Shown here: positions 1,490 to 41,939 of the stretch, piece by piece | Numbering within the stretch: position 1 is the stretch's first letter | Layout: each line of letters starts with the position of its first letter | NCBI GenBank assembly: GCA_050084515.1 | Contig: CM114271.1 | Coordinates: forward strand, 21,390,001 to 21,454,000 | Direction of reading: 5' to 3' | DNA: 64,000 bases | Origin: Blasia pusilla | Lineage: Eukaryota | Translations under genes and position numbers: made by a program | The notes under the pieces: model-generated | What the model saw: only the letters and a program-made list of their open reading frames with translations | Database searches by the model: none | Told to the model about the DNA's origin: nothing

Positions 1490-1970
1490 TAATCTAGTCG
1501 TAAGACCTCAAAGGTTTTCAAGGGCCGTGGGGACCATTGAGTTGGACCACTTCCTTGCAGAGTTTTGAAGGTGATGTGACTTCCAGAGGGCAAGGAACTC
1601 CCAAGAGTAAACCCCTTTATAGATTGGAACGACATGTTTCAACATTTGGAGGGGTGGCCTATGGACAACTATCACAAGTTCTTGGCCTCGTTTCAACGGT
1701 AATCAAGGCTTGGAGACATTATTACAATCCACACTGTGTATCGTGGGCAAAGTCGTTCGCAGATGATGAGGAGGAGATGGGAAAGGCTACCTCATGTACT
1801 ACTAGTGAGATCCAAGGAGGGGTAGCCCACTTTGGAACAATTGCATCATCTTGTCAAGTTTGTTTGAGGTTCAACCCCTCGGTTAAGTTCTTCTTCGAGC
1901 CAAAGAGGAACTACGAGGCTCGGGGACTTTACTCTTCATTGGATTACTTGCCCCTGTGCGAGCAAAGATA
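1490..1970 (+). pseudogene. Decayed retrotransposon gag N-terminal fragment (family B, copy 1)
   Basis: Reads LVVRPQRFSRAVGTIELDHFLAEF*...FNPSVKFFFEPKRNYE across stops and frameshifts. The last motif aligns with FNLVVEFFAELQKNYQG at ~43228, which leads into a zinc knuckle and a protease. Confidence 0.55.
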
Positions 1971-3957
1971 GGGGCACTTTTATTAAAAAATGGCCAAATT
2001 TTGGAAGTACTGACCACTAAGATAGGGTTTTTTTTTTGCCAATTCCGCGTTGGTACGTAAGCAAGGGGTGACACAATCCAAAATCTAAGTAGAAAAAAAG
2101 CAAGGGGTACAAGTGACTTAACACAGAAAAATATTACATTTTAGATATACATTTAATAAATAAATAAATAATATAATCCCAAAGGAAACAAAAATCTTCC
2201 TTAAACAATTAAATAAAATAAATATTTCCTTGGTTGAATATGTTAAAGTGCATATCTTGGTGAAATATATCAAGTACATAAAGCTATATTTCTAGAGATG
2301 CTTTGGGCAAGGCTTAGGGTCATGTATCGGTGAGGTCATGTAGACACAACCTCATCAAAATACCTCCAAAAAACCTGAAACTTTGTTACGGCATGTATCT
2401 CTGTATCCTTATGATGTTAGATGTTTTTCAGAGCCAAATGATGTTCCAAAACAAAGTTAAAATTCCAAACCATAAAAAACAAAGGAAGATTTTGGAGGCT
2501 TCTTATAAGCCAAATTTCATGATCTAAACCATTCAAATCCTCCTTGGTTTCATGACACATCTCCCCCAAAATTCCCATCTAGATCCAATGGTCCAATTGT
2601 ATGTTACATTCCATCCAACATGGTACATGCGTGTTCATGAGCCGGAGAGCACATCTTTCTCTTAGCTCATATTCTAGTGATGACACTTGGCATGTGCATG
2701 TGTTGAAGCATTTGAAAGAAATCTAGAAAGTTTCATATGTTTTGGACTTGGGGATAGGGAATTAAAAACCAAAGATAATATGTCTTTTGGGATTTTTATT
2801 TTGAAATTGCAACATGAAAATGAAGATCTGAACCGTCTTGCTCATGAGGAACAAGATGGATGTCCAAAATTAAAAAACTTGGGAAGATCCAATGGTGAAA
2901 ATGAAATGAGTTCATAGCAAATTGAGAAATTGTCTCAAGGGAAGAGAGTGGGTTGCTTTTACATGTAGAAGGGCTCTTATATATCTCCAACCCCCCCTTG
3001 GTTTTGGAATTTTCAGGACCATTGGATCAGAATTATCCAAGGTTTGTGAGCCCTAGGATGGACCTGATTTGATCATGGCCTTTAGATCTAGCCAAGCCCT
3101 AGGATCACTCCCTCCCAGGGACTTTCAGCCACTCGATCAAGCAGGGCTGATCAAGGCCCTTGATTTTGAACGGGGGGGGGCAAAGGGGTAGTCGGACCCC
3201 AATGCCATTCTCTCCCTCATTTTTCGAGTTGGAGAGTTGGAAGAGGTGAGAGTTCTCTTTGAAGGCAAAGCCCTGGCCCTTTGGAAAAATCTCCTCCTTT
3301 CTGTTGCTAGTGCTTGTGATTGCGAGAACACTCTCCCCCCTTCAGGTCTGTTGGAGCTCAAGGAGATCTCAAGCACTTGGTTCTCTCCGAGGTTCCTTCA
3401 CATTTTTCTGCAGGTTCTAAGCTCACACTTTGGGGGCTGCTGCTGGTGGGAACTCTCGGATGGGTGCTGCATAGTCCAAACTCATTCTGCCTCTGCTATT
3501 GCTATTGCTCTTTTCCCGACTCTTATTGCTGCTGTTGTTGCTAAAGCTCCTGCTGCAAAACAAGTTTTGTCCTCACTCCCTACTGTATCCTAGGCAACCT
3601 CGGACTTGCTCACTCTTGCTAATCCTCCAATTGCTGCATTTCCACTTCTGCAATGGCTCTTACTCACTCCTACTATTGTTTTTGCAATAGCTTTTGCAGG
3701 TTCTATCCTCGTACTCCTCTTCAGCTGCTGCAAGTTCCATCCGCGGACCAGACTTTAGTTGTTGCATTGTCACCTCCTGCAACTCTTGGTCATTGTAGTA
3801 TTATTGTTGTTGTTGGTGCTGCTCCAAGATCAAGTAGGGGTGGTGGTTGCTGTAGAGGCTTCTTCAACCTTGGACTCACAAAGCTGCTGCTGCCATTTCT
3901 CCAGGTAGGGTATTCTCTCTCTCCTCTCCCTCTCCCCCTTGATTATATTTGAAGGGG

Positions 3958-4987
3958 CTTTTGTCATAAGACAGAAACCTCCAGGGAGATCCCCCCCTTG
4001 CTTCTCATATTTCTGTCATAAGATAGAAACCTCATGTGGGATCCCCCTTCTCCCCCTACTTCTCAAGTTTTTGTCATAAGACAGAAACCTGAGGGGGATC
4101 CTCCCCCCACCCCTCTCTCCCTCAAATTCTCCCCCCGTGCTTCTCAGGTTGCTGTCACAACACAGAAACCTAAGAGAGGTTCCTGTCTTATGATAGAAAC
4201 CTCAGGTGGGATCCCCCCTCTCCCCCTCTCTCCCTCAAATTCTCCCCCCTGCTTCTCAAGTTTCTGTCATAAGACAGAAACCTGAGGGGGGATCCCTCCC
4301 CTCTCTTCCTCAAATTCTCCCCCCTGCTTTTCTGGTTTCTGTCTTATGATAGAAACCTAAGGTGGGTCCCCTCTCCCCCTCTCTCCCTCAAATTCTCCCC
4401 TATGCTTCTCAGGTTTCTGTCATAAGATAGAAACCTGAGGGGGGATCCCCCCACTCCCCCTTCCCCTCTCTCCCTCAAATTCTTCCCCCCTTGCTTCTTA
4501 GGTTTCTGTCATAAGACAGAAACCTCAGGTGGGATCCCCCCTCTCCCCCTCTCTCCCTCAAATTCTCCCCTCTACTTCTCAGGTTTTTGTCATAAGACAG
4601 AAACCCCCCCTCTCTCCCTCAAATTCTCGCCCCGCTTCTCAGGTTTCTATCATAAGACAGAAACATGAGGGGGGATCCCCCCTTGCTTCTCTGGTTTATG
4701 TCTTATGACAGAAACCTTAGGGGGGATCCCCCTCCACCCCCCTCTCCCAGGTTTCTGTCATAAGATAGAAAACTGGGGGGGGGGGGGGTGTCCCAGTTTA
4801 TGTTTGTCTCTTATTGCTCTCTCCTTGAATTGGATCCCCCCTTCCCCCCTATTCCTGGTTTCTATCATAAGACAGAAACCAGGAACTGAGGAGAGAGGGC
4901 AAATCACTACCTCTCCCTCACTCTCTCCCTAAAATATTTCCACCCTTTTCCCCTCTCTCAGGTTTCTGTCATAAGACAGAAACCTGA
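3958..4987. repeat. Tandem array of ~15 hairpin palindromes (CAGGTTTCTGTC-ATAA-GACAGAAACCTG) with C/T-rich linkers and GGGGGATCCCCC palindromes
   Basis: Directly visible. Copies at about 3960, 4010, 4067, 4145, 4178, 4258, 4333, 4410, 4500, 4580, 4640, 4693, 4748, 4856 and 4959, with variable 30-110 bp spacing. Confidence 0.95.
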
Positions 4988-5061
4988 CTTGTCCTAGGTT
5001 GTGGCAGTGTTATGAATTGCATATGAATGTGAATTCATTTGCGTTGATCTTTTACTCAGAC

Positions 5062-5659
5062 ATGGTAAGACACACTGATAGCAGCTCCTACAAGACCCGA
5101 TCCCCTTTAGATGCTTTCTATTTCCAAGCAACGCTTCAAGCCTTGCCCTTTGAAGTGAAGAAGGCGATCTTCATCAAAGTCCAGCCGATCTCCTTCTTTG
5201 AGCGCATAGCTGCATTGCCACTTCTGTGTCAATTGAAGATTTTTAGTTATGCATGTGGCCATGCACTATTGGGAATGGGACCTTGCGCAGAGGACTGCAT
5301 GCTGGAGGTTTCATGAACAAATTTGTTAGCTATATATGAAGATGGCTGATTTGTGTTGTTGCACAAGGATCGGTACTCCATTTTGGCGTGGTTGATGTTG
5401 GGAGTGGCAGATTGGATTACAATCCATATTTTCCATGACCAGAATGGGTTTTTGGTTGGTGAGGACAACTCTCCTCACATGAGGAAAGATGTAGCTATGA
5501 TCCACCAGGCCATTACCTTCTCTGGTCGTATTGTGTGCCTCCGATTTGAGTATTGCTACATGCCAGAGGGATTGCTGCCACCTGCAAGAAAATTGCTTGG
5601 CTAGACGGTATCTTAGGCAGCGGTTGAGAGGATGTTTTTTCCCATGTTGTAGCCGGGTG
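5062..5659 (+). pseudogene. Decayed ORF of unknown function with two weak F-box-like motifs, truncated by the LTR insertion
   Basis: ATG at 5062 follows an acceptor-like ttttactcag. ORFs 4999-5316 and 5353-5604 are in the same frame, separated by stops. Motifs LPFEVKKAIF and LPLLCQLKIF. Confidence 0.3.
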
Positions 5660-6690
5660 TGTCGCGACCCTCATAACCAAACAACACCAAATAGGCGCAA
5701 AGCAAAACATCAGAACTCAAAGGAACTCACGCTGCGAGGTTTGCGCTTTGGAGAGGCGTTTGGAAAAGTCTCTTGGAAAAGTCTAAGAGACGAAACGCGG
5801 AACAAAGTTGTGCGTTTCATACGTTAGTGGTCGCGACCAGGAAACCTAGACCAAATACGAGCCAAGACTTGAGATGAGTTGAGTCTTGGGAGGTTGGTTG
5901 CCAAAGAGGTGAGAACCAGTTTGGAACACGACTAGCGTTTGGGAGAATCTGACTGTATTTAGGACCATAACGTTGAGCTCCAATATGCGTTCGGGACAAG
6001 TAAGGGCGCGTTGGAAAGATTATCTTAAGACGCTTCCGATGCACTAAAGATCTTAGAAAACGCATAAGTACAAGCTGAGATATTGGCCGAAAACGATTGA
6101 GAGAGCAATCGGGTTGAGGGCCAATTGGAGAGGCCCGGGTGTCTTTCCCTAAATGTAGGGGGCCCCCGGAGATCCCCAGAAGTACTAGTAAGGGAGGACT
6201 CTCTCCGAGATGTCTCGGGAAATGAATCCCCACTTTGGGCGCCAAACGGTGTTTCAGAGGCACGGGATGGAACGGGAGTTTGGCACGGGAACTTGAAACC
6301 CAAACCTGATCCAAGGGAGTGGACTTTGTACGCCACACTTGGATTCCAACCCGAGATTCACTTCGTGCGAGTCTTGGTGAGGAACTCATTGGATGTCCAT
6401 CGGACAGTTGGAACCGCTAGTCGCGAAATGCCGTTTCAGGTTCCTTAACCGACCAGAAAGTCTGTCCCAAGTCTTTCGAGATTTGTCCGTGTTGTAAACC
6501 GCGAAACTAGGAAGGTTGAGCTTGATGAGAGTCCGAGACGAGAACTCGGAAAGTAACCCCGCTGGTTGATCCAAGACCCGACTAACCACAGTGCGTGTTT
6601 GGATGCAGATCAGCATTGAGAGCGTGACCTACTGAACGCACCCTTCCACAACAAACAAGATTAATGTTCAAGGAGAGTAGGCGCACGACA
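5660..6690 (+). mobile_element. 5' LTR of Ty3/gypsy element (family A)
   Basis: Termini TGTCGCG...CACGACA (inverted, TG...CA), followed by a PBS. Both ends are matched by the solo LTR at 43645-44646. Confidence 0.93.
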
Positions 6691-6692
6691 CG

Positions 6693-6704
6693 TGGTATCA
6701 GAGC
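6693..6704 (+). promoter_or_regulatory. Primer binding site complementary to tRNA-iMet 3' end
   Basis: TGGTATCAGAGC, 2 nt after the LTR end. Confidence 0.92.
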
Positions 6705-6840
6705 TTATCCTTGATGAGCGTGAACTTGGGGTCGTTGAAGATTTGGACGTTTGGGGAGAACTCAAGGTAGCCGGAAGACCGCGACGCCGAGGAGGAACGC
6801 AAGAGGCGAGGAGGAGATCTGAGAAAGCGAAGACTCGCAA

Positions 6841-9800
6841 ATGGCGACCAAAGGCGAAGAACCAAGGAAACCGCGAGTCAAAGCAAAACATCCGAGAGAC
6901 GAATCAATGACGGACCGAGAGCCAAAGGTGGAATTTGCGACTCCCAAAGTGCCGAGTCCCAGACATGAGGATGTTCCAACCGAAAATCTTTCCGCGGGAC
7001 CTTTGGGTCCAAACTTAAACGATCCGACCTTTTATATCCAAATGATGGGATTGATGAAGGTGATGGCGGACCAGATGGCCGAACAGAGCAAGGTGATATC
7101 GGAATTCAAGTCAAATGGAGCCTCTAGTTCCGGCAAGAAGCTTTGTAAGACTAATTTTCCTACGCCATTCACAGGAATGGGGCGTTCTCGGAAAGTGAGC
7201 GAGTTTCTAACGGAACTCAAACTTTATTTCGAAGCGCAAAAAGCGGATTTAACAAGACAAAGTGATCAGAGCGGTCACGTTTCTGAAGGATCACGCTCTC
7301 CATTGGTGGACAGCTCACCGTAAAGAACATGTAGGTCGTGGGAAAACGTTGAGTTGGGAAGATTTCAAGGAGTTGATTGGGAACCGATTCACTCCGGAAT
7401 ATCAGGAGTATCGCGATTGCATGGAGGTGGTGAGGTTGCGCCAGAGTGGATCCCTTGGCGCTTATGTGCGAGTGTTTAGTGCACTCAAGAGTGCACTTTC
7501 CACGGATGAACATACAAAAAATGTGATCTTCCTAAGTGGACTCAAACCGAGTGCCGAAAAGGCCCTCTTTTGTATGCCTCACATCCCAGAGACGTGCGCG
7601 GATCTTCTGAGACTAGCAGAGTGGATTGGGGACGATGAAGTCCAACACCCGAAACCCTTTGAGCCAAAAAGTTTTTCTAAGTTACCGAAAAACTAAGGGA
7701 CATCCAAGAGGGTTTGGAATGGGGGTGAGCGCGACCACGTAGGGTCTCTTGCCCCAGCAGCGAAACGAGTGGAACTCAACGCAAAGCCAAAAGGGCCGCC
7801 GTTTACGAAGTCAACGAATGCCAAAGTGATTTGCTACAACTGTGGCGAACCCGGACATATGGCTAAGGAATGTGTTAGGCCCAAGGTTAGTAAACCGAGT
7901 ATGATTGCGTTTGCCGCTTTGCATTTATCCGAGGGAGATCTAGATACATCTCTACAAGTCACCAAGAGAACGCTCAATTTGGTTTACCTAGGATCCAGGA
8001 TCGCTAATCGCGATGTGATGTTGCTCGTTGATACAGGTGCTTCGCACTCATTCTTGAGACCGAGAATCGTGAAAACGTTGGCATTACCAACCACCAAGGC
8101 GGATGAACCCATTAGGGTAGGATTCGCGGGAGGCAAGTCCCACCAGACTTCAGATCTGGTTTTAGGGCTAGTTGTGAGATGCGGAGTATTTGAGTTGAAG
8201 GAGAATTTGAGTTGAGTGGTATCGACGGAGTCTTGGGGAACACGTTCTTGGATGCGTATGAGGTGGAACTGAGGTGAAGACCTTTGAGGTTGAGCGTCTT
8301 GGTTAACGGCAAACGGACGGACGTCAGATTGGTTCGCGAGGTGCCTAGGAAGACGGAGTTGGTGAACGCCATCATGAGGACGAGTTTGGCCGAGTTAGAG
8401 GAAGGATTTCTTTGCTTGATGAGACAAGTATAGGATGATGCAAGCGCGAGATGCAGAGATCAGAACTCAGCTTCAAGGAGAATCCCTGAAACACTCAAAA
8501 GAGTTGTGAAAGAATTTGGAGATGTGTTGACTAAGGAGCTTCCGACTGAGTTGCCACCACATAGGGCGGTTGATCATAAGATTGAGGTGATACCAGGATC
8601 TCAACCACCTTCAAAAGCACCATATAGGTTGAATCAAGAGGAACTTGCTGAGTTGAAGAAACAGTCGGGTGAACTCCTAGAGAGGGGTTACATCCGAACA
8701 AGCAAGTCACCTTATGGGGCGCCCGTCCTCTTTGTAAAGGAGAAGGATGGGAAGTTGAGACTCTGTGTTGATTATCGGGTGCTGAATAAAGTGACGGTAA
8801 GGAACAACTATCCTCTACCAAGGATGGATGACCTCTTTGATCGATTTTCGGGTGCCAAGTATTTCAGACGGATTGATCTGAAATCAGGATATTATCAGAT
8901 TCGGATTGCCGAAGCGGATGTAGAGAAGACTGCGTGTAGAACGAGATACGGTTTGTTCGAGTTTGTGGTAATGCCTTTCAGTCTTTGTAATGCGCCTCCA
9001 ACGTTTACCACTTTGATGAACTCCATCTTTCATAAGGAGACGGATGAGTTTGTGATCATCTATATTGATGACATACTCATCTATTCGAAAACACTAGAGG
9101 AGCACGCTCGACATTTGAAGACGGTGTTTGAGAAACTTAGGGCGAACAAGCTGTATGCGAATGCGGATAAGAGTGAGTTCGTTTTGACGAAGATCAAGTT
9201 CTTGGGGCATGTGGTTAGTGCGGATGGAGTGAGTCCAGACATGGAGAAGGTAAGCGCAATTGCCGAATGGGAACCGCCTTCCACGGTGAAGGGGATGAGA
9301 AGGTTCATCGGAGCAGTCCAGTTTTACCGGACATACGTGAAGAACTTTTCGGGAATAGTGAAACCTCTCACGGATTGGACCGCAAAGTTTGCCAATACTA
9401 CATGGACCGAGGAAGTGGATAAAGCGTTCAATCGAGTCAAAGAGATCCCCTCGCAGGAACGAATCTGAAACTTCCGGAGTTTGACCAACCGTTCGAGGTG
9501 CACACGGACGCTAGTGATTTCGCGATTGTGGGAATGTTAGTGCAAAAAGGGAGACCGGTAGCATACGAGAGCAAGAAGCTTAGCGACACCGAAAGGAGAT
9601 GGCCGACTCATGAGAAAGAGTTGTTTGCGGTGGTTCACTGCTTGAGGAAGTGGCGTCACTATCTAGGACTTCACAGGACTCGAGTATTCACCGATAACAT
9701 ATCGCTCAAGTATTTTGAGACCCTGGATCACGTAACGCCAAAGCAACTTTGGTGGCATGATACCTTGGCGTTGATGAATGTGGAGCTAATCCACAAGACG

Positions 9801-10243
9801 GGGAAAGACAATGTCATTCCAGATGTGTTAAGTCGCACGGATGAGCACATGCCATCGACGACACAAGTGTTGAGAGCAATGTTCCCTAATGAAACAGACC
9901 TGGAAAGAAGGATTGTGAAGGATACATAGAGGATGCGCAACCAAGGGAGTACCTTGGGAAGTTAAAGCGGGGCGAGAAGGTGGCCAATCTGATTTTGAGA
10001 CACGGCTTGCTAAGGTTCAAGCAGAGGAGGATCTATGAAGGCCAAGGCAAGCTACGGACCAAGGTATTTGTGGAATGTCATGATGGACCTTTGGCGGGAC
10101 ACAAAGGGGAGAAATCCACTCTTGCTGTTTTGACCAAAAGGTTCTTCTGGCCCAACATGAAGGAAGATGTTGCTCAATATGTGAAAACATGCCTGACCTG
10201 TCAGGTGAACCGCATTTCTTATGCGAAGAAACAAGGCTTACTT
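6841..10243 (+). pseudogene. Ty3/gypsy gag-pol (gag, CCHC knuckle, protease, RT, RNase H, integrase zinc finger), frameshifted and 3'-truncated
   Basis: Gag ALHWW..SWEDFK; knuckle CYNCGEPGHMAKEC; protease LLVDTGASHSF; RT KLRLCVDYR...MPFSLCNAP...YIDDILIYS; RNase H HTDASD...EKELFAVVHCL; integrase H..GH...CLTC. Order PR-RT-RH-IN. Homology stops near 10243 and no 3' LTR follows. Confidence 0.95.
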
Positions 10244-10428
10244 CATGTGTGGTGGAGGATGGGTTGGCACCATGATGTGATTCATAGATGAGTAGGGTTT
10301 TTCCAATGGCTATTATGAGGCCTCTAATTTTGTGGGGAATGACTGACTTTTGCACTCGAGGACACTAATTTTAGGTTTTTGGCAGAGAAGGTGATTGAAG
10401 CGGAGTATGTGTGGGGTGATCATTTGTA

Positions 10429-13400
10429 TTGCTCACAATGTCACACAAAATTAAGCTCCTTTATTTACTATTGATCGGGGTTGAAAAAACAGAACCACTA
10501 TTGAGATATGCCTATAAGGATGAGGAAACCTTAGAGAACATGAGGGATAAACTTAACAAATCAAAGAAGTGGAGAGATGTTGAGTTTAGTTTTTGGGATA
10601 AGAGAATACCTGGAATTGTAGATAAGGACATGGAAGATTGTAATATGCTAGAGGATATTGGAGAGGAAGTTTATTTGATAGATAGTAGGATTGACAAGGG
10701 TACATTTTATGAAAAGGAGGAGGGAGGGAAAAACAGTAGGGAACTGACCTATCGGTAGAGGCCAGTTCCATGGGATCTAACACTACTCCATCCCCATGTG
10801 GGCCCAATCCCAATTCGGGAGAAGGAGGGGATAATTTGATCTCTGATTTGGTAGGTGGGAGCTCACGTCAATCCCTTGATATTGATGATGTGAGGGGTAC
10901 ATGGGGCTCAGCGTTGATGAAACCCTTGTACACGTCATATTGGAAAAGTAAGACCAAGGGATTAGATAGGTTGATGAAGGACCTGAAATTAGACCACCAT
11001 AGATGGTCTGTGCGAACCTTTGATAAACATGGGGAACCTCAGGGTACATTTTTCTGCGAGGAGTGTGTTGAAGAGTACGGCACCGCAGATGGCTCCGAGG
11101 ACAAGAACTGCATAGATAATACATTCAATAATTGGAGAAAGCATATTCTAACAATTCAGCATGAGAGGCGGTGGTCAGAGAGAAATAACTTACTTGTCAC
11201 AAAGAGAACCAAGTTTGAAATGCGCAGGCCTCAACCTGTGGATCCAAGACTTGCAGTGGAGGAAGGGCTTAGAATCATGGAGGAGGTGAACTCGGCCTCG
11301 GGTTTAGAGAAATCACCTTATATCCATTGGAGTGGAGACCTTGTTGTGGAGCCAATTGTGGCTTTCAAGTTTAAAGCTCATTGTGTATATTGTAAAGAGA
11401 CCATCCACTTAGCCCCTGCGCATAAGAACTTGAAGAAAAACCTAGAGCAGCATTTGACAAGCAAGTTCCATCTCAGAGGTGTGGAACTGAGTAGAGCAAA
11501 TGCTTATGCACCTCTAAGGACGGGAAAGGCAAGCAGACCTGCAAAGCCTTACGATAGAGACACTAAGCCCAACAATGCCCTTGAGAGGTGGCTGGTGAAG
11601 TGTTTTCGGCGTGGGGGATCTCAACATGGCAGAGGTTTTGAAGGTGAGGCTTCACATATTGAAAACCTTGCCGACTTTCTGTTATCTCAATTGTGTTGGG
11701 GTTATTGGAGAGACACTATGGAGGTCTCTGGCATTCAAAAAAGAAGTAAATGCAATATTGCATGATGAGAAGGGAGGAAAAACATGGGAATGAGATGCCA
11801 GAGTTAGGAAGAGGGTGTTCAACCCCATATCTGAGTGTTGGGTGGACATAAGGGGTTTGTTCAGATCAATTAATTGTCTGCATGTTAGTAGATTGGGAGG
11901 TGGTTTTAAGCACTTCACTTGTGATGAGTGCTTCAAGATGACTAACGAGGGGGATTTTAGGACGAGAGTTGACAGAGAAGACAAGACTGGGACTCGGCGA
12001 GGGACAAGATCGACCTTGATGCGCATAAGATTGGACTATCTCACTAAGCCTGTGCTACGGTTGCAGTACTTATGCTCGTGAGAGGAGAACATTGCACTTG
12101 ATCAATTTTGGCTTGAGAAAGAGGGTATGTGCACTCCAGACAAAGAAACATAAACTAGACTTCGTGTTAGATCGGGCAGCCAATAGGAAATATTTGCTTT
12201 CTTTCCTTCGAAACATTATAGTAGCGCATAGGAGTGGATACTTTGGAGGACAAGAAGCCCTTTGGGACTATCTCCAAGATCTAGGAAAAAATATGAATAG
12301 GAAAGAGAAGGGGCACAGATTTTCAAAAAGGACAAATGCCATTGCTCAGGCACTTTTGCAATTTGGCGGTCGACCTGTAGCAAGATGCCTACCGTTGAAC
12401 CTTATGGGCCCAAGTTTAAGTACATTAAAAAGAGAAATAAGAAATTTTGTTCCCTTTCAATGCGGCATTAGATCAGAGGTGTTTAAAGAAGTGGGACGGA
12501 TACTGACTGCAGCAAAGGAGAGAAATGGCATCACTGGGGATGTCCCTGTGGTGTTTGCTCAAGACGAAACCAGGGTGAAAGGTCGTGTGAGGTATTTTCT
12601 TAAAGACATGCTCCTTTACATTGAACTATTTGATGTCTTGAATGGTAGAGCATACCTTGTTTTTGAAGTTGCTTTGTATTGCCTTTTGAGGATAATCTTA
12701 GGTTTCTTTTTCTCCTTGTGGTATGTGGGAATCAAAGTGGGATGCTCTGTTGGGTTTTTGTGGTCTCTCTAAAAACCATCAATGTAGTTTAGGCTTGGAA
12801 ATTGTGGTTGGAGAGGGAGATGAGGGATATGAGAAAATCATGTCCACATTTGAGAGTCATATAATCGGTGTTTATGCTCGTATAATTGTTGTAAACCCTC
12901 TACATGAGAAACTTCCCAAACTAGTTATTTGTGCCACCTGCACATGTAATGGGTTTACAGCAGATTGGGTAAGGGCTCAGTGGGAGGTTACGAAAACAGA
13001 TGCACTTCGATAAAAACGTGTGATGGAAAACCCATCGGAAGTACAAAAGAGGGGGACTCAAAGAGTCAAAACCTGAAGGCCACAACAAGACTAGAAAAGG
13101 AAGAAGGGGGCATTCCCCCCCTAACGACGAAACTCACCAACAGCAGAGACAATATCAGCAACAACAAGAGAGCTATGACTACTACTAAGTGGGCCTCTAG
13201 CGCCGGCGTCTCCACGACTGAGCCGCCGCAAAAGCCCATTAGCCTGGGCACGCTGCAATGCTATGGAGACCTGCTACCTACAATAGAGAATCGCAGTAGC
13301 TAAGGAAAACCCATTTCTCGAGTGGAGATGATGGGCGCAGTCCGTAAGGAACGAGTCAAACCTCTCCCCCATAACCCCATACATCTCTATGGCCAGGGGG

Positions 13401-15830
13401 ATGAAGATGTGTCCCTCGCGAAGTTGACTGTAGATATGTGTCTTCTTCACCGCCGCCGCCGCCGCTCCTTGTAGCATTCGCCCTTAGGCCACCACTTGGG
13501 CTCGCAATGCCTCCCGCGTAGGATCTGTAACTACCACATCCGCCACCACCACCTCAGCCTCTCGTGTCATGTAAAGATCAGCTCGAATAAGGGAATCCCG
13601 CATGGAGTAGTGCCTCTCTCTCTGCACATAGAAGCCACTCTCCCAAGCAATACTGAAACCATGTGGGATGCATATAGTAGGGAATCGGTAGGCCCTGTTA
13701 TTGGGAATGCTTCTGATGGTGATGCACGAAGGCGTAAGCTTATGCTTGAAGATTATATGGGTAGAGGAACATATGGGGACCATCCTCGTAATGGTCTTAA
13801 TTGGGCAGGGTGGGGATTCACAGTACATGAATATCCTAAAGGGGATTATGGAGGGTTTGGTGATCAAAATCCTCCTCATGGTGGGAAGAAATTTTTGAAC
13901 CCATTAGATAGAGCAAACCATCCAATTATGTTAGGTCCTTACATATCGTCTTTAGAACACGTACAACTGGTGTACAACCTTTATCCTAAAAAGCAACATC
14001 ATCTAACATTTGATTATACAAGAAGAAGGGACAGATAGAATTAGGCCTCTGCAAAGACAGTTGCAAGTAGAGGAGTGCAAGCTTGTCGTCATGACTTGCA
14101 AACACGTGATAATGCTTTGTAGGAGAGAACTTTGGGTACAGAGATATACCTATCAATCTATGCTGATTACATTGATGTTTTTTTTCCCATGATTGTGTGA
14201 AACATGATTTGTGGACTCGAATCATGCTCTATTCAAAAATCACATCATTCCTACGACTATGGAGGTTGTGGTTGAAGTTACGTAGTGATACATATTCTGA
14301 AAAGAACATGATTAGTCTGCAAGTATTTCATGATGTGAATATGTCATGTCACTATGCTGTGCAACTAATTTGCCTCTTTAGAGATAAATATCCCTCGCTT
14401 CTTGTTCCTCTTCATCTAACATGATCAAATTGTTGTGAAATCTAAAGTTGGAGGGATGGCGGGTCATGAGCGGAATTATGATCTTGGAGTTCTGATGGAT
14501 TCAGTCTCGTTCTTAAACAAAATTTTTGCATTAGAGTATGGTGTAGAAGGGTTGAAATTGGGAAGGAATTACAAGAAAATGGAGCATATTTGGCATGACT
14601 TACATCCTCTCCTTCTATGCCAGTTACCAATGATTTTGGAGGATTACAATAGTATTTCCACAGATGAACTTGTTGTGGATGCCTTAAAGCGGGGTTTGTG
14701 GGAGGCTCAAAATCTTTGCATAAGATTAGAGATGAATCCACATACATCAGAGATTGATACAAGGTGGTGGAATACACCTTGGGTGATAGAAACCCAAATT
14801 TGGAAGAAAGATATCATTTCCATCTAGAACATGGAAATTGATCCTGATGAAGAGGCGGAACTAGAAGACGAAGTTACACCTCTTCAGGATTCAGACCTTG
14901 GGAGATCAAGCTTTCCTCCTCCGACTCAAGTGGAAATGGAGATGACTTGGATCTCGTTGATAATGCATTGTGGAACACAAGTGATACTAGTCCTACTTTA
15001 CATGGAGATGATGATATGCTAGATGATGGATTGAATGATATAGATGTTGTTGGGAATGAAGTTGGTCATGCTTTTGAGGAATTCATGTCTTCAGAACTTC
15101 ATGGTAGGCAGGAGAGAATAAAAAAAGTAACTCCTATAGTTAGATTTGAGGGGAGTCACATATAAAAGTCTAGTCTTATTAGCCTACTTGTGGGAAATCC
15201 TTCTCTTTCAAAAGATAGATTGAAAAGGGTCCAGCATATAGGGAAGGTGAGGGAATCTATTCATTGGAATAGTTTCATGGAGAATAGATATGATAAAAGT
15301 GAGAAGATTATTCTCACTAGTGGTTCTGATATTGTTGTTGTATTTGCATCAGGTCCAAGTGTTCTTCAACCATGCATGTCCACTCAAGCATCATTGGCTG
15401 CAAACAAAGGGAGAGGAAAAGGAAAAGGAAAAGGGAAGACATCAAGGCCTAGAGACATTAACAAGGCATCTATTTTGAGTGGATATGATCAAATCATTTG
15501 GATAGAAGAGTTTAGAAAATTAGGAGGAAATATGGAGCCAAGTTTGCTCGATCTAGACATGAAGTGGATTTGTTAGATAGACCTATCCCTCTGAATGAAG
15601 GTGGCCAATCTGTACAAGTCATGTGTAATTGGTTTAAGCCAGTAGGCAATAGCAAGAACAAGTTTAAATATAATGAGGTAGATACTAGATGGATTGATAT
15701 TGAGATGGTAGTGAGCTTGGTGACCATGCGAGTTACAAGGGGGGGTCTGGTAAGACATGGACTTTAGATGAGAATGATAGAAAGGCCCTTGATAGATTTT
15801 TAGAGAAGAACCATACCTTGAGAACATGAT
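10429..15830 (+). pseudogene. Decayed DNA-transposon gene: two C2H2-type zinc fingers plus P-element/THAP9-like DDE transposase
   Basis: Fingers CEEC...HILTIQH and CVYC...HLTSKFH. Then GPSLSTL, FAQDET, ASDGD, DQNPPHGGKK (D/N-x2-H-x2-K), LRLWRLWL and a SNCCE-like motif, ending in an acidic tail. Probable intron about 12592-12726. Many stops. Confidence 0.7.
12992..13650 (-). mobile_element. 5'-truncated CRE-like (restriction-like endonuclease) non-LTR retrotransposon fragment inserted in the transposase gene
   Basis: Minus strand reads IAWESGFYVQRE..IRADL..VVADVVVTDPTR..AAAVKKTHIY..FIPLAIEMYG, an RLE-type C-terminus. Removing it restores the host frame QWEVTETMWDAY. Confidence 0.8.
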
Positions 15831-16109
15831 GTCTACCATGTTCATTCTTTGCAGATTATTATTCTATTGTGATTCAATTTTCAGACATGTGATCATGTTA
15901 TGAATTGAGGCAGATGAAATTTTAATATGCAATCTTCACTGTAGGCAAATTTTTTTGGATTACTTAAGTTTTTTTTTTGGCAAGGGGCTGAATATTCAAA
16001 GGTCACTTCTAAGAAAGGGCCTTTAATATCATGCTGCATATGTAAGAAGGGGCTTTAATTTTAGGGGGGGGGTAGGGGTGGATTAATAGGGTATCGCTTG
16101 CACATGATA

Positions 16110-17230
16110 TAGAGTATATATGTATAGTGAAGTCCTCGAGCTATGAGGAAGTACAGAAGTCGAAGTTGAAGAGCATCTACGACTTGTGTGAGGCATTCAT
16201 CTACTTACGATGGTTGATTAATGTCACCCAAGGAGTGATAGAGGCCCATGCTGTCCAAGCATCGTATGGAGAAGTGGAGCGTGACCTACGGAGACTGATC
16301 ATAGATAACACTTTGTTCTATCATAATTTACCTATCTTGAGAGATGTTTTTGAGTTGGTTGAGTGCAATAAGGCAGAGGAGAGTAGAACAACCTTCATTA
16401 AGCTATGCAAGAGAGGAGTGACCACTCCATAAGTGTAGTAACATCCAATAAGAGAGCGTAGTGATCTAGGATGCTAGGAGATGAACATGAGCACATGCAG
16501 CTCAAGCCTATAGCATCATATGCAGGCCAAAAATAGCCAAGCGTGATTTTTTGGGTGTGTGGTGGGACCTGTCATCAAGAAGATTGCATGCGCCAAGGGA
16601 GCAAACCAGATGGATCCCCGCCTAGCATATTCCATTGTGACCATTGTCAAAATTTTGGCCACATGTGTGATAGATGCTTTGCTTTGCATTCCAAGTTACA
16701 ACCAAATAGGAAACTAGAGAGGGTATTGGATAAAGTTGGAGGACAAGGTGTAACTAGAGAGCGTGGAGTGGGTGGAATTGTAGATGGTCCTATGGGAAGG
16801 CAAGGTGGTAGGCATGCTCGTGGACTTGGTCAAGGTCCACCATCCAAAGAAGTCAATGAAGGTCCTACTTGTGAGGCTGGGATGGCCGTCCACATTGAGC
16901 AACTTCAATAGTAGATTGTAGCAATGGCATTGAGGTTACCAGCTGCCAGATCAATGGCATTAACCTCTTACGAAAAATTTAAGGATGAAGAGATGGATGT
17001 GCGAGGATGTACAAATGAAGGCAGCTACCGTGGGTACATGTGGAGCAGTGATGCAGCTCAATCCATAGAGAGGTGAAGTTTGGAAGCAAACGAGGCTCCC
17101 TTAATTGTTCACTTTGTTTGAAGCGATGAGGATCCTCTCAATGGGTCTTGATCAGAGTTTTCGGGGGTTCGATGGTGGTGTTGGAGTGTCCCTATCACAA
17201 GTGAATGAGTTCAAGCACGCCTATTGTTGA
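16110..17230 (+). pseudogene. Decayed gag with zinc knuckle (family B, copy 2)
   Basis: LCEAFIYLRWLINVTQGV..LRDVFE and CDHCQNFGHMCDRC. Colinear with 43300-45480. Confidence 0.7.
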
Positions 17231-18958
17231 TGCTCAAGAGGAACCCATGTCAAGTTAAAACTAAGGGGCAACCATAACATTCTACCGGTTAGCTTTATTG
17301 AAGTGCATAGAATATAAGACAAGATGGAGATTGTTGCCTATGTGTCTAATTCTATCAATTATAAGAGTGACAACATGAAGGTCCTTGAAAGGCGAGCTTG
17401 ATCGCCGTCTATGACCGCCTTGGTGTGGGGGCGAGGCATTTAGGGTACAATATATACACATACTAGTTTCATGGCTATTTAGCTAAGGCCATGTTAGGGT
17501 TCTCGGGTTATTCCACGCTCGCGGCTTTAGGCTGGAGAGTCAGTCTTGGAGAGCTTGCGATGTATAATGTGTGCACATTTCAAAAAAGCAACTTGAGAGT
17601 TTTTTATCATGGATGTAGCTTCTACATGGGAAGTGAACCATGTACATCTTGTGCAATTCATATGAGTGATTGTCCAATTTCTTCCAACAAATATGTCCCC
17701 CTTAACCATTTCCCCATCTAGAAAATATGCCTAAACATCACTAGTCAAAATTTAGTGTCATACCCATGGCCCAACACCCGATGGGACCCTCCCCTTGGAG
17801 AGTGTTCCCAATTAGAACTAATTGAAAATTACGAAGACAAATATAAGAAAGCCAAGGGTTAACAATGAGATAACTCCTTAGTGTAAAATCTCACTATTAC
17901 ATCCATAGAGCGACGCGTTTTGAACATCTTTATTATAAATATCTGATAATCTTTCCTATTCATATTTTTATTTGTGTTAGAGTTCTCAGGTTAAGAAATG
18001 AAAAATGCCTCAACGTTGCCGTGTGTCCATTTTTTTATTGCTATACTACCTATATGATTGGGCTATGTAGTTCCAATTTTCAAACTTGTTAGGGTAAGAT
18101 TATTAATGATAAATTCTATGGCTTAGAATGCAGCATGGGGGTTGGTGGGAGATTGGACTAATCCATTTCTTGTTTCCCGTATTGGGCTCAACCCCGCCCT
18201 CATGCAAGTGCACCGCCCATGTTAGCACTTTTCCATATAGCTATAGGCACAAATTCTTGCACAGGCAAGTTTGTCCATCGGGTAGACATAAGTCCACAGA
18301 TTTGGATTATATATCCATATGTAACCTTGGTGAATCCCTATGTTATTTTTTACCAAAATAAATTTATGTTACATATATTTCATAATTTTGACACATGTTT
18401 TCCCTTGATGTCAACTTTTTCTCATTCTTTCCAAAATTGTAATGAAAAATTTTAATATAAAAATTTAAATCAGGTGAAATTTCTTTGGGGATATTCTAGT
18501 AAAATTTAATTTTAGCCTCTAAAGCTTCTACATTTGATTTTTTGGAAAAATTCATGTGAAAATATTTATAATTATGAATTTTTTTCAATGCGAATATTAG
18601 TAAGAATTGCTTTAAGGAATGGATGTGTTTATTTTTAATGATTTCAAATAATTTATTTTTTTCTTACTTTAAAATCATTAAATTATTCTTTCTTAGGAAT
18701 CAAAATGCTATTACACAAAAATCTACACTTTTTATGATCTTTAGGGTAGGAAATGTAGAACTCTTAAGGAAGGTTATGTGTAGTTAAGAATTTCAAATTT
18801 AGTTCTTGGATTTTGTTATAAAAGATGTATTTAAGTATTATGGTTACCACTTGATACCTATTAGGTACTAACCAAATCACAACTAGGGGAAAAATTTAGC
18901 AGAGAGATAAAAAAATTTAAACAAAGCAGTATATTGAAAGTAGATTTTTTTTGAAGAG

Positions 18959-28229: not shown

Positions 28230-28444
28230 TCTATACTATTATCGGAGGAGCGATTTTCAAGTGGCGACACGGGATAATCCACCACGTGTCCTTTGACATG
28301 TGGTGGACTATCCCGTGTCATGGCATGGGCATTCGGATAGGGAGGGCATTCAAGAAGCATTCAAAGTTAAGGACCGGGACGTTTAGGGTTAGGGACTGTG
28401 GAGTGGACCATGCATTGCACGGTCTCCCCACGGGTCCTAACTAG
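28230..28444 (+). mobile_element. Complete 215-bp mini-Helitron
   Basis: A|TCTATACTATT...CCATGCATTGCACGG hairpin...CTAG|T, inserted in an AT dinucleotide with no TSD. Confidence 0.85.
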
Positions 28445-29351: not shown

Positions 29352-32300
29352 GAAGCTAAACGTACGATAGTCAATCAAGGATCACTTTCTAGAAATATAA
29401 AGTAAACTCCATAATAATATGAAAATTTCCATAAATAGTAAGTTCATCAAACAGGCTCCAAATAGGCCTATATTGTTGCATGTTACCCTACACTTCAACA
29501 ATTCATCTATGGACTACTTGGTTCAATCGCAGACCTCTCCCAAAGTGCCGTGCGGATAATCTTACTCACGCTACCAAAGATGTAACAATTAGAAGGACAA
29601 TTTAGTACATGTAGTAGAGGAATACTTAGTTGTTTTGGACCAAAGGCAAACACAACTGATATGTGAAAGAGAATATATTTCTTCCTAATTAGGGCTTAGT
29701 ATGATGAATTGCTCAAGGGTATGGGAAGAGGTATTGGCTAAGATCTCATCCATGCAAAAATTAGGACCTAAGAATTCAAAAATCATGAAGAATTTATTCA
29801 ATCACTCGACCTCGTATCTCATTAAACGATAGGGATAAAGGCTCTACTTTGGCGAAGACATTGGTGGCTATACTAGATTTGAAATAGCTTTTACAACTAT
29901 CTCCATAAAGTGTAGACTTGTTTGTTTCAACTTTTCTTTTTATAAGAAATTGAATCTGGAGTATGTACAAGATTAATGCATATTTTTTCAATCTCAATGT
30001 AGGGAATAAATATAATGTTTAAAAAAATTTCTTCGCGAAGATCTTTCATCTTTAGATTATAGTGGATCGGGCCTTTCGAGGATGAAAAAGAAGCCGTCAA
30101 TATAACATGTTGTCGTTTGACTTTGGTTGAGATGAAAATTTTCGTGCGCATACACATCGTTTTCACCAAAGACACACTCGATCCTATGCTAACTAATGGC
30201 ATTGAAACATTAAAACATTAAGTACCAAAATATCTCCAATTTAAATCAAAGTTCACTCTCACAAATCTCTCTCTCTCTCTCAAACCAAACCCACTCTCCT
30301 AATGAAAGGCTTGGACTACAAACACAAGGCAAGGAGGACCATAGCTCCGCCGCCTCATGCCAAGAGGTTCAACAAAAACAGAACGAGTTCCAAAGCTCTC
30401 TCTCTTTGGGTAAACCCCCTTCCTTCTCCCAAGTTCTCTCTCTATGATAACCTATGCTTGTAGGTCATCTCCTTGGCTCTTGACTTGCTGTAGGGGGTCA
30501 AGGGTCACTTCCCAAAGTAGAAATTAAACTATATTCAAAATGATATCTTACGTGAAATAGTAAGTTTCTCTATATGGCTCCAAATGAGCCGCAACAAAGG
30601 GGAAATGTGATCTCTCATGTTACCCGTGGCCTCAATAGGTCATTTTTGACCTCTTGAGGTTGTCCTCCATTATCCTAGAAGGGCGCTCTACTAGATCTTG
30701 TCGATCTATTTTAAAAGAGGTGACAAAACTTTAACCGTAGAGAGAGGACATTTGGCTGCCATCTTAAAGTTATAGAGAAAATAACCTAAAATCACTAAAG
30801 TAGATCAAATACCAAAATTGAGCTCTACTACAAGACGATTTCACAACTTAACTTCATTTTGGGGTTAAGTTGTGAAATTAGTCATTGAGACTGGAGAGTC
30901 ACACATTGTCTTCTCCACAATCAACTTCTCAGGGATATATTAAACTTCTAGTAGTATCTTGGGAGGTATCCATTTGATAACAAAGTACATCAAGGTTATT
31001 TGGAAGAAGATCAATGTTGGCTTTGATTTGATCTGAGCTTCTTAATTTTCATGCCTTCAAGCTTTATCAGGGAAGTAACAAGTACCCCACACAAGTCATG
31101 CCTTCTACTATAGCTTAGAAAATTATCTCTTGGATGGCTTGTGCCTTACTAATTTTTGTATGAAACTTTTACCACTATATGCCATTAGCCCTTATTTCCA
31201 TAATTCACCGCAAGTAGAAGAGCTTTCCACAACAGGATCAAGTTTCTAGTTGCCTTATGAGCAACACTTTCTCGAGGTCCATGCTTGTGCTCCACAAGGA
31301 ACATCTATACATCACCTAAATGTAACTCTACATGAGATATTTGCTTCTCAATGCTCTTGAATCTTGATCTCAAACTCATATGTGGACAAGCCCATAAATT
31401 TATCTCCACCTTGCCATAAAATGTATTTGTGGAGGTTCATAGGCATGGAATCATCAACATCAACGTTGAATTTAGATGCAAAAAAAACCCTCCACTTTGT
31501 AAGCGAATTTTTTTCGCCACGTATGAGATCATTTCCTCCTTTCATGCACCCTCAAGGCTCTATTTTCTTGTTGAAAATTCAGAGCAAATTCTATTTGCTC
31601 TGAATTTGCAAGCAAGATAAGGGTATCAACATATGTACTTCGTTGGAAAGTACTTGCATGACCATCGCCTTTATCCAAGTGGGAGGGAATTCCAAATTTT
31701 TTCCCCGCTTCATCGCCAACTCAATTCACTTGGATATAGGGATTTGTCCAACCCTTGGCAACATTTCTTCAAATTTCGGCTCTTGCCCACAAAAATTTCA
31801 CCAAGATGGCACAACAAAAGCAACTCTCGTTTAATTTTAACCGCTTGTACAATGTTAATGTTTTAGCCACCGATCCCTTCTTGACATCCTTATAACCTTT
31901 CCCGGAAGTTTTCGACATTCTACCATTGCATTATTCACTCCCTCTAGTCAATATTTTGTACTCTGCCCATAATCAGCTTCCTAGAACTTACAACATGTAA
32001 ACCCCATTTCACCAACACCCTAAACATGCTAACACAATGGGGGGGGCTAATGAGGCACGATTAGTTCCCATGGGACCCACGGGGCTACTTGAGCAATAAT
32101 TTTATAGTTTCAAGGGCAACATCCAAGCTCTCAAAATTGAGGCGAAAATCAAGTGATTTTAGACATGTGGGGGTATCTTTTTGCGCCTTTTCCAAACTTT
32201 GCGGCTTTTCCAGACTCGAGAAGGATTGAATTGAAACTTTAATATTTATCGGAAGAGATCCTTTATAGATCCCTTTTAATACCTTTCCGTGGGAATGTCA

Positions 32301-33844: not shown

Positions 33845-34687
33845 ATATCTGCGACTCGAGAAACCTGGGCCAAATAGAAACCAAGAGTTGAGTTGAGTCG
33901 AGTCTAGAAGAGTGGGTTGCCAAAAACAATGAGAACCAAAATTGGAACTTGACTAACTTTTGGTGTTTCACTGTGTTTTAGGTCATAATGGCCAGAATCG
34001 AGATGCATTTGGGACAAATAAGGTGGCGTTGGAAATCTTATGCAACGTCGATTCCAACGTAGCACAGATCTAGACAAATATATATTAAGAAAAGATCAAG
34101 AAACTGCCCAAAAATTGTCCGAAGGATAGTTGGGTTCAGGGCCAAAAGGAGGGGCCTGATAGTACTTTCCCAAAAGTACGGGGAGATCAGAGAACCCCAT
34201 AATTATATAGAAAGGGAGTCTCCAAGGGTTCTTGGGACCTGAAATCCACTTCGAAGAGCACGGGGCGAACCAAGGGCAGGGAATGGATTGGGAGGTTGGC
34301 GTTGGGGTATGAATACCAAGCCAAGTCTAAGGGAGTGAATTTTGGAGGTCATCCTTGGATTCTAACCTGTGACTCTATTCTTGGGTCTCGATTAGGGACT
34401 CATGCAAGATCCATTGGATATTGGAGACCTCTACACATGCGAGCGCCGTTTTAGACTATCCATAAAGTATATCCCACGTTTAGGAAGACTTGCCCGTGTT
34501 GGGAAGTGAGAAGTTAGGACCTACTGAGCTTGATGTATGGCCATGTTGAGAGCTCGATGAGTTGGAAGGCTGGTGGACTTGAACCAAGACTATTAAGAGT
34601 GTGTTTGGGTGCAGATTAGCAAAGTGGGTGTGACCTAGTAAATGTACACTTCAAAGATTGATGTTCAAGAGGAGTAGGTGTACGACA
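33845..34687 (+). mobile_element. Diverged, 5'-truncated LTR of family A
   Basis: Colinear with 5830-6690 and ends GTTCAAGAGGAGTAGGTGTACGACA. No PBS follows. Confidence 0.8.
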
Positions 34688-37938: not shown

Positions 37939-40900
37939 CAAGGTTGCACAAAAACAGACAAGTCCTTCCATGGGACCGACATGTCCACATACATGGAAAA
38001 CCGGTCGCGAGCCCCAATTTTTTGGGTGTCCCAATCGATTGTGCGTGCTCCACTTGCGGAAATAGGTTTGGGCTCGGATAAAGGGTGTGGGCTAAAGGGG
38101 GCCCACAGGCGTAACGTGGGATGAGGACCGACCTAACACAGACTGAGGGTGAGCTCCCTCGCGAGCCTAGCGGGTTTGGGGTGGTCTAGGCACGAGCTGA
38201 ATGCGGGCTGGGGGTTGGCCAGGAGCGGGCACCCGCACAGGCTTGAGGGCTAAGGACGGGCCTATCACAAGCTAGGCGGGCTGCGGGTCGGGCAGGCCTG
38301 GCGCGAGTTGGGGGTGGGCCTATCGCAGATTTGGCAGGCTGGGGGCTGGCCAATTGCAATCATGGTGTGGGTTGGGGGGCGGGCCTTGCGGGCTAAGGGC
38401 TAAGGGTGGGCCTATCGTGGGCTTGGCGGGCTGGGGAAGGGCGTGGCACGAGCTCTCATGAGGGATTGCGGGCTTACAGGCAGGATATGGCACGGGCTTT
38501 GCGTGGGCCCAAGAGCCTGTGGGCAGGCTAGATGCAAGTGAATGGTGGGCTGAGGGCGCGCCTCGTAGGCTATTGGCGGGTTGATGGCGAGCAGGCAAGC
38601 ATACCTATTGCGGGCGTGGCGGACTAAATGCGCGCTTGGCGGGCTGAAAAAGAGATAGGTGGGGATGAAGCGCGGTCCTAGTGGGACTTAAACACAATTT
38701 GTGTATGGGGGAGGGTGCTTGAAGGGTAGAGGGGTTGGAGAAAAAAAAAGAAATGAAAGTAGGGTAGTTGTATTAGAGAATAGGTTAGTTTCAACTGAGA
38801 GTAATTGAAGAATAATTGAAGAAATGGGGATAGTATTGGTGGAGAGAGGAAGGAGAATGTTAAAATAGAATTGAAGAGGGTGGTTGAATTGGAAAATAAG
38901 TTAGTTGGAAATAAAATATGGTGAAGAAGTTAGGATAGGTAAAAAAGGAATGGGATAGGAGAACAAAATCAGATTTGCTAAATGGTGATTGGTGGAGATG
39001 GTTTAGGAATAAATTGTAAGTGGGGGTAGATAATTTGGGAAGTTAGAAGGGTTCATTCTATTCCTTCCATCCTCTCCTATATAAACTTGCTAATTTTTTT
39101 TAAACCGCACAATATGATTCCTCCCTTCACGTCTTTCTCTCTCTATTCTTTTGTGGAAGTTTTTTTCTTCATAGATGGTTGAAATTTGATAAGTGAGAAT
39201 ATGTTTTGCCACTGGACAACCCTGATAATTTAAGGTATCTCACTTATCTAGGTTAGCATATTGATCTTTCTTGTTCATAGTGAGTGTTCCAAGTTTGTTA
39301 TTCGAGTATTCACAGACAATATTTTATGTAATTTGCATACATTTTTTTGGTCGATATATCCTACTATTGATATTGTAAAATTATAGCGAATTATCCAAAT
39401 GTTGTTGGGTGGGATTAGTGTCTACCTGTAGTCATGACCAAAGCAAGAGAACTCCAATAGATCGTGAAGGAACATTGGGAAGAAGTACAGATGGAAGCTG
39501 GAACATCAAGCAAATGGTAACGTAAGTATTGTTCCTATTATTTGAAAACCTATCATAGTATGCGAATGGTGGAGCATTTAACATGAGAGAGACAAAAGAA
39601 AAAGGATGGGAATCAAGATATCCATCATACCAAATTATGTGTGAAGATCCCTCCTAGTGTGCAACGGGATCTTCGAAATAGGGTACTTATGGGAAATGGA
39701 CAAAGAAGGAAGGGAGACCCTCGAATGAAGTGGAGGAGACGACGCCATTACAAATAGGTTTGCAAAAGACATGAAATAGTATTAAATTTTATGTTGTATC
39801 AAATGTTGATGGGATTGAAGATATGCCATCGTGTGATAGTTTTGAGGAATTCAGAGGAGTTGTAGGGCTGATTCGAGGGAATAGTAGTACTAGGAAGAAG
39901 CAAGCCGATCTGATGGATTCTTTCAACATCCAAGGAATAAAAGTTGCAAATGAAATGTGGGCGAAGTGTTTCTACGAATATGGAATAACATTCAATGTAG
40001 TACGGCAAGATGCTCAAATAAATAGTGTTGGCAACAACAAAGGTGAAGGGCTACTCAGGTCCTAATTACCATTCGTTGCACACCACCCTACTTGACAAAC
40101 ATATGGGGAAGATGAATGAAAAGTTTGATGGCATATTGGATAATTTGCATTCGGGGGCCACGATCATCACGGATTCTTCGACCAATGTGATGAGTGAGTC
40201 TCTAGTGAACATCATGGTCTCGTGTCCACAAGGTGGGGTCATGATTGAGTCAGTAGACACCAACGGAGAATCCCAAAGAGCGGAATGGTTGGCATGTTAT
40301 ATAGAGAGGACTATCATGCGCATCGGTCCAGAGAATGTGTTGCAACCTATGACAAACAAGGCTATCAATGAGCGAGCAGCTGGGAAACTTCTTCAACAAA
40401 GTTTCCTCATATTCTTTGGGATGATTGTGTGTCACATTCTCTTGATCTAGTACGCAAAGAATGGGATAAATGGCCTTGGGTGGATAGGATTTTTGCACAA
40501 GCTTGTGAGATGGTAGTATTTGTGAAGAATAGAACTTGGATGATGGCCAAATTCATCAAAACCAATCTAGTGAAGACTCCTCCAAACGCATGCTTTGCCA
40601 CAAACTCTCATGTTGGGACGTGTCTTAGAATTGAGGGAGGCGTTCCATGCCATGGTTGCCACAAATTCTTTTAGGGAGTATTTCAATGGGAGGGATGCGA
40701 GGCAAAGGGAGAAGGCACGAGAGATTGAGACTATTGGGGCGAATCACAATTTTTGGATAGAAGGTGAGTTTTTTGTTGTGGCTTTTCCAACCATTATTCT
40801 ATTGAGAGAGTGTGTTGGTCATTAAGCAATGACGGGGCATAGATAATGGCCGTATATTTGAGATAATGGAAGAGACATATTTTTTTTTGTAACAATATCT

Positions 40901-41800: not shown

Positions 41801-41939
41801 ATCTTTAAACATTGAAAGAGTGGACTTAGTAGATGAGCCTAATGATAATGATGCTCTCATACATATTATTCCAAACTCTCAACCCATTAATCATGGCATG
41901 GATAGTTCATACATTTCCTTTGATGATGAAACAATGGCA

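Follow-up and report, generated by a model that had tools for sequence, protein, structure and literature searches.

Internal tandem arrays are common in plant transposons (they are treated as such in the available part of a review, PMC10794571), and their function is mostly unknown. VANDAL/VANC is a worked-out case: in the accessible text on VANDAL elements, which are Mutator-like elements of Arabidopsis, the VANC-bound motifs are tandem repeats located in introns and upstream regions (PMC5735166). The LTRs of Sireviruses hold about 7 cis-regulatory palindromes, which preserve their arms better than their centre according to the excerpt available (PMC4728375). Retand/Tat elements of the Ty3/gypsy group also hold internal arrays, and recently active Retand elements are reported only from eudicots and monocots in the available portion of PMC11963269. 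Finally, baculovirus hrs consist of 24-bp imperfect palindromes in 64-bp repeats and act as origin and enhancer, as described in the accessible part of PMC4535591.

Here we describe a palindrome array in 64 kb of land-plant DNA (the whole stretch analyzed, referred to as the window) and compare it with these systems. Like the family-specific, non-coding tandem repeats of VANDAL elements, whose units are gained and lost between copies (available text of PMC5735166), it is a tandem array in the non-coding part of what is probably a dispersed element. However, VANC motifs are 9 bp long, lie in one orientation and are not described as palindromic in that text, whereas the array consists of 24- to 32-bp palindromes with loops pointing both ways. 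Pfam revealed no Mutator transposase or VANC homologue in the frames of the array's host element left of a gypsy cut at 5659. The array and Sireviruses (Ty1/copia) both have a motif with dyad symmetry that recurs many times in what is presumed to be cis-regulatory DNA (excerpts of PMC2829016 and PMC4728375). In contrast to the Sirevirus motifs, which in these excerpts have a CGG-CCG core and CpG islands and sit just upstream of the LTR TATA box, the array consensus lacks such a core, shows a CpG observed/expected ratio of 0.05, and is accompanied by neither an LTR pair nor a copia gene. Retand/Tat elements resemble the locus in having a family-specific internal array beside extra frames of unknown function, but in the portion of PMC11963269 at hand that array lies between pol and the 3' LTR together with an antisense ORF (TRP28), and the host segment is without gag-pol, LTR pair and TRP28. 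In geometry the array matches the hrs, which are arrays of imperfect palindromes of 24 to 28 bp in repeats of about 64 bp (more broadly, 24 to 30 bp in units of about 60 to 80 bp); yet it lies in apparently methylation-decayed plant nuclear DNA, with no viral genes and no match in the viral collection. Membership among baculovirus hr origins, a likeness raised in a preliminary description of this DNA, is not supported, given the plant transposon context and the 0 matches in IMG/VR. In each comparison the array lacks a defining trait: the motif type of VANC targets, the core and position of the Sirevirus motif, the pol and TRP28 of Retand, and the viral context of hrs. We regard it as a further example of a feature type that is already known, in an unclassified element. 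If it works at all, it may resemble VANC-bound repeats or Sirevirus palindromes in its working.

Structure of the palindrome array

A scan of the 64-kb window with the 22-bp core identified 15 palindrome copies between 3952 and 4988 and none elsewhere. Their 32-bp frames start at 3952, 4004, 4062, 4143, 4174, 4255, 4330, and 4408 (copies 1 to 8) and at 4497, 4578, 4638, 4689, 4746, 4853, and 4957 (copies 9 to 15). In addition, a 24-mer gave 23 strand-matches, all at the 15 sites, compared to 0 in 100 shuffles, which confirms the earlier count of about 15 repeated palindromes. A 16th core match at 25610 was dropped, as it had 6 mismatches and was non-palindromic. The coordinates of the array and of its surroundings are collected in Table 1.

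Table 1. Features of the array, its flanks and the adjoining retrotransposon
Feature	Coordinates	Strand	Description
Palindrome array	3952..4988	.	Core arms of 10 bp, extending to 14-15 bp at most; loop of 4 nt; modular units
Copies 4 and 5	4143..4205	.	Adjacent pair with opposite loop orientation; 9-bp linker
Copy 7	4330..4361	.	TTAT inverted loop amid forward-oriented linkers
Copy 12	4689..4720	.	TTAT inverted loop amid forward-oriented linkers
Copy 14	4853..4884	.	3 of 4 outer pairs changed on both sides; arms reach 15 pairs with one mismatch
Q/E-rich decayed stretch	3403..3896	-	ATG at 3896 (56 bp from the left edge of the array); spread over two frames; putative gene
180-codon frame	5062..5604	+	ATG 74 bp right of the array; 2 internal stops; putative gene
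Candidate intron around the whole array	3905..5059	+	Donor-like site at 3905, acceptor-like site ending at 5059, by eye
AT-rich repeated segment	1914..3111	.	TATA-like box at 2977; three GATCCAATGGT boxes
Ty3/gypsy retrotransposon	5659..10290	+	LTR about 5659-6690, gag, protease, RT, RNase H, start of integrase (zinc finger)

The spacing of the palindrome units is irregular, from 31 to 107 bp, and no helical phasing was found in it. Tandem Repeats Finder reported periods of 51 to 89 bp over the array and a two-unit higher-order period of ∼153 to 170 bp in its middle. The linkers between the 22-bp cores measure 9 to 85 bp and draw on three modules. Of the 14 linkers, 11 contain a second palindrome, in agreement with the earlier remark that linkers often carry one, 8 a CT-rich module, and 10 a short module immediately ahead of the stem. 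They vary by the loss of whole modules and by the length of C-runs, whereas none of the 15 stems contains an indel. Because the linkers share modules and differ widely in length, unlike the unique, evenly sized spacers of CRISPR arrays, CRISPR is excluded, as the preliminary description had already held. We found no intact half-site outside the 15 palindromes.

The loop reads ATAA in 11 copies, ACAA in 1 copy, and TTAT, the reverse complement of ATAA, in the copies at 4174, 4330, and 4689. In these 3 of 15 copies, the loop is inverted while the surrounding linkers hold their orientation, a feature missed in the first reading. Copies 4 and 5 probably arose by a local inverted duplication, and the changes of copy 14 are as one event of template switching would give. 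The available text on small plastid inversions describes hairpin-mediated flips, which are a parallel for the inverted loops (PMC6824564).

The 3' end of a Helitron carries a hairpin closely followed by CTRR and a host T. CTAG follows copy 15 only, with G as the next base, and the array was rejected as such an end.

Neither the exact nor a degenerate version of the palindrome had a match in IMG/VR and JGI metagenomes, and blastn searches with the array retrieved 0 matches from phage and plasmid records. Among GTDB genomes, we found one lone, unrelated site: in a Mycobacterium MAG, positions 1501 to 1522 hold one 22-bp palindrome with the same arms and an ATAT loop, outside any array. It is operator-like, has an ABC-transporter-like gene on one side and a divergent gene that resembles a regulator (by eye, of the TetR type) on the other, and most likely reflects chance convergence. 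A word-matching search of open-access papers returned no literature on the array; the available part of a preprint on transposase-driven activation (10.64898/2026.08.24.746577) holds nothing on palindromes or bryophytes.

Flanking frames and the element that carries the array

The array had been placed between two decayed ORFs. Both ATG-started frames were indeed located, but neither is proven as a gene. Their ATGs, in plant-type contexts, point away from the array, and the right-hand frame ends just before the gypsy insertion at 5659. Two stops interrupt the first 179 codons of the 5062 frame, whose openness exceeds chance by a small margin at best (P = 0.09 versus shuffles). It had no hit of similar length in a 5.8-billion set (179 candidates), no homologue among 1.84 billion representatives, and no match in Pfam, PHROGs, or PDB sequences, the last searched with its first open piece only. 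A single-sequence structure model reached a pLDDT of 39, so that the fold search with it, which gave no match at an E value of ≤0.001, is meaningless. Residues ∼24 to 55 look F-box-like by eye, an impression that Pfam did not support at an E value of ≤10. The Q/E-rich stretch matched no Pfam or PHROG family, and no DNA-binding domain was found in either flanking frame. A further frame at 1382 to 1972 had no match among longer proteins, none in the language-model atlas for its open part, and no likeness to the 5062 frame.

The splice-like sites that bracket the array, of which the acceptor-like one ends two bases ahead of the 5062 ATG, suggest that the array may be intronic, a prediction made by eye. 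Besides the TATA-like box at 2977, 1 kb before the array, another occurs at 5330, 340 bp after it. The AT-rich segment at 1914 to 3111 may be the left end of the array's element or hold its promoter. It contains the window's only three GATCCAATGGT boxes (GATCCAAYGG), at 2582, 2886, and 3028 (minus strand), which we take to resemble mitosis-specific activator elements after CpG decay.

We then turned to public sequencing data, namely, three DNA runs (X1, X2, and X3) from one study and at most two samples, which contain 5 to 9% of the words searched. No RNA run was among those listed, which carries no information on expression. Run contigs were aligned to the window at 80% likeness, and the matches listed are 24 of about 26,600 pieces. 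At least four different X1 contigs overlap 5273 to 5401, with 7, 13, 20, and 24 differing letters over 163 to 261 bases. Among the matches listed, contigs ∼7 to 11% diverged span 3447 to 3723, one X3 contig with 21 differences spans 3805 to 3997, from the left flank into copy 1, and another contig passes from 4930 to 4537 through 18 other letters, an arrangement of linkers that the window does not contain. Also among these matches, further contig pieces lie over 1914 to 3111, and in one of them the match breaks off at 1919, leaving 61 letters unmatched, which hints at a left end of the host element. None of the matches listed spans the whole array. X2 is without cover over 3137 to 5376 and the cover of the array is thin in X1 and X3, although such holes prove nothing. 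The summed X1 depth is 0 to 8 over the host compared to about 4000 to 6500 over the gypsy LTR, values that are not a measure of copy number. Together, the diverged contigs of both flanks and the rearranged array piece argue that the host is a dispersed element, probably a family with variable arrays and a low copy number, bearing in mind that polyploidy or a mixed sample could inflate a copy count based on contigs. The paralogue-like contigs on both flanks thus bear out the proposal that the array lies in an unclassified repeated element.

We infer that this host is a transposon. Within the window, its segment showed no transposase, gag-pol, paired terminus, LTR pair, or target-site duplication, and the left segment has no partner terminus. 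Among 43 CA-TGG candidates, no primer site was recognizable by eye in a comparison with tRNA ends. As no terminus, LTR pair, or primer site is found and the right part is severed by the gypsy element, the host is left unclassified.

Divergence among the copies and readings of the array

The preliminary description held that the stems are better conserved than the linkers. This is true of length, all 15 stems being free of indels, but not of the rate per base. The inner 24 bp of the stem deviate from the majority at 22 of 360 sites compared to 8 of 176 in the CT-rich main linker module (Fisher's test, P = 0.55) or 28 of 386 in the three modules pooled (P = 0.56), counts that omit module losses and C-run length and that come from stems and modules both chosen with mismatch limits. 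In the window's copy, then, stems diverge as fast as linkers, the outcome that had been put forward as speaking against a functional array. This comparison has little power, because most of the divergence looks like methylation decay after insertion, which hits all sites alike.

Indeed, 15 of the 21 arm substitutions fall at the 6 CHG-context columns among 20 (P = 1e-4), and 13 of the 21 arm changes are C>T or G>A. The CpG observed/expected ratio is 0.05 to 0.45 in the host segments, the array being at the lower end, compared to 1.0 in the gene region at 57 to 64 kb. The CHG bias and the CpG depletion point to a silenced repeat, and most differences among the copies would result from methylation-driven decay after insertion. 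A single copy that differs mostly in this way cannot reveal selection on the stems in the active element.

In the inner 10 pairs, 21 of 150 arm pairs are changed, every one on a single side, so none of the 21 is compensated; on the plus strand 13 break and 8 become G-U, and on the minus strand the numbers are 14 and 7. The outer four pairs show 6 two-sided changes, a number matched by 10 of 500 shuffles, and 3 of the 6 come from copy 14. A search of Rfam gave 32 matches at an E value of ≤5, all far below their thresholds. The structured-RNA option of the preliminary description finds no support in the uncompensated pairs or in Rfam.

Our preferred reading, to which we give slightly less than an even chance, takes the palindromes as internal cis-regulatory sites, arrayed for a dimeric DNA-binding protein and analogous to the targets of VANC or the palindromes of Sireviruses. 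The two-fold symmetry of the sites, loops that lie either way, and the absence of compensatory change argue for duplex DNA rather than RNA, and inverted loops are expected if the arms are read symmetrically on duplex DNA. The array would be the internal non-coding tandem repeat of a low-copy, now dead land-plant mobile element. In the active element, it would have acted as double-stranded DNA, each 24- to 32-bp palindrome being a two-fold symmetric site for a dimer, and the presumed binder may have been an activator or anti-silencing factor encoded by the element, or a host factor. Fifteen such sites between two divergent frames could have formed a multi-site enhancer or landing pad, from which the bound protein may have driven or protected transcription of the flanking frames. 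Units would have multiplied, and linker modules been lost, by slippage or unequal exchange at C-runs, while occasional hairpin-mediated template switching may have flipped loops and symmetrized arms. After insertion, the copy would have been methylated, have decayed, and then been cut by the gypsy element. Points against this binding-array reading are that per-base conservation of the stems does not exceed that of the linker modules, that the spacing is irregular and without helical phasing, that no mobile-element hallmark was found for the host, that the paralogue-like contigs are short, and that neither flanking frame yielded a homologue or DNA-binding domain in the sets searched. If an element-encoded protein does bind the array, the locus would represent an independent sequence-specific system of anti-silencing or activation outside Arabidopsis; if no such protein binds, it is an ordinary minisatellite in dead repeat DNA. 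A stronger version, which we regard as unlikely, treats the segment as the control region of a mobile element whose class is undescribed, in an under-sampled plant lineage. Of the two divergent orphan genes beside the array, one would encode a dimeric, family-specific activator or anti-silencing factor that binds the array as a 15-site operator; this would imply an independent origin of VANC-like counter-silencing, with long palindromes replacing short direct motifs.

A neutral complex minisatellite within the repeated element is a close rival of the binding-array reading, although we consider it doubtful. In this view, slippage would have multiplied a hairpin-prone unit whose symmetry was maintained by template switching, and the array would serve no function at all. 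The equal per-base divergence of stems and linker modules and the irregular spacing are what such an origin would give, hairpins undergo such loop inversions without any selection (available text of PMC6824564), and about half of Retand elements hold internal tandem arrays of unknown function (accessible part of PMC11963269). Against it, though with little weight, all 15 stems are whole while the linker modules drop out, and the array occupies the interval that separates the two divergent, ATG-started frames. That the hairpins act instead as RNA, in an intronic or 5' leader multi-hairpin that would be a source of small RNAs or a packaging or protein-binding signal, we hold to be highly unlikely. 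The bracketing splice-like sites on the plus strand would suit such a transcript, which folds at -426 kcal/mol (a value without a shuffle control at that length, and any palindrome array folds). Sirevirus palindrome regions give hairpin small RNAs in the excerpt available (PMC4728375), and the outer two-sided changes exceed those of most shuffles. However, half of these changes stem from copy 14 alone, no inner pair is compensated, three copies have inverted loops, and Rfam offers nothing near threshold.

The array could also be a set of replication-origin or recombinase sites (an hr-like origin, HUH nicking hairpins, or loxP-like sites), with the flips as the footprint of strand exchange. The asymmetric spacer occurs in both orientations, as such sites might show, and the geometry is like that of baculovirus hrs in the part of PMC4535591 available. 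This alternative is even less probable: no Rep, helicase, recombinase, or viral gene was found in 162 frames by Pfam or in 5 by PHROGs, matches in IMG/VR, phage, and plasmid records number 0, and template switching accounts for the flips without an enzyme. Moreover, a spacer of 4 nt is short for tyrosine recombinases. Least probable of all is an origin from a duplicated and pseudogenized pair of host genes, or from captured gene fragments, in which the array would be an intronic or promoter minisatellite unrelated to transposition. The missing mobile-element hallmarks of the host, its TATA-like box, splice-like sites and plant-type ATG contexts, and the F-box-like look of the 5062 frame would fit a gene origin. 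Yet the frame has no homologue among the 1.84 billion representatives, Pfam does not support the F-box impression, and the CpG ratio of 0.05 to 0.45 differs from that of the gene region.

Other elements in the window

The window is a mosaic of decayed transposons, and the named relatives of the gypsy RT are plant proteins. The types of element present lead us to guess at a non-seed plant. The gypsy element has a CpG observed/expected ratio of 0.92 to 0.97 compared to 0.05 to 0.45 in the array-host segments; it is a later insertion that severs the array's host and is not part of it. Its integrase is in turn interrupted by an element at 10300 to 17800 that has zinc-finger-like and transposase-like stretches by eye but no Pfam family; within it, 10740 to 11762 gave a weak lead in the language-model atlas (0.86; one cluster is 41% zf-BED). 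On the minus strand, 43647 to 44646 is a solo LTR, 70% like the LTR at 5660 to 6692, whose flanking 5-mers agree in 4 of 5 positions, and a partial relative lies at 33859 to 34687.

A lone 54-bp hairpin with long arms is located at 28266 to 28319, and a weaker one at 31563 to 31620. A decayed hAT transposase at 40022 to 41458 is followed downstream by a tandem array of 183-bp units (41911 to 43016), which are probably its subterminal repeats. A large decayed element at 49824 to 55662 contains a 300-codon frame that has a weak zinc finger of the BED type, 72-bp coding-like repeats (51158 to 51357), an array of 12 units of 23 bp (55383 to 55662), and, near 55.0 kb, a SWIM domain. Lastly, a host gene at 59581 to 62752, in a region without CpG depletion, carries two PQ-loop repeats in separate exons.
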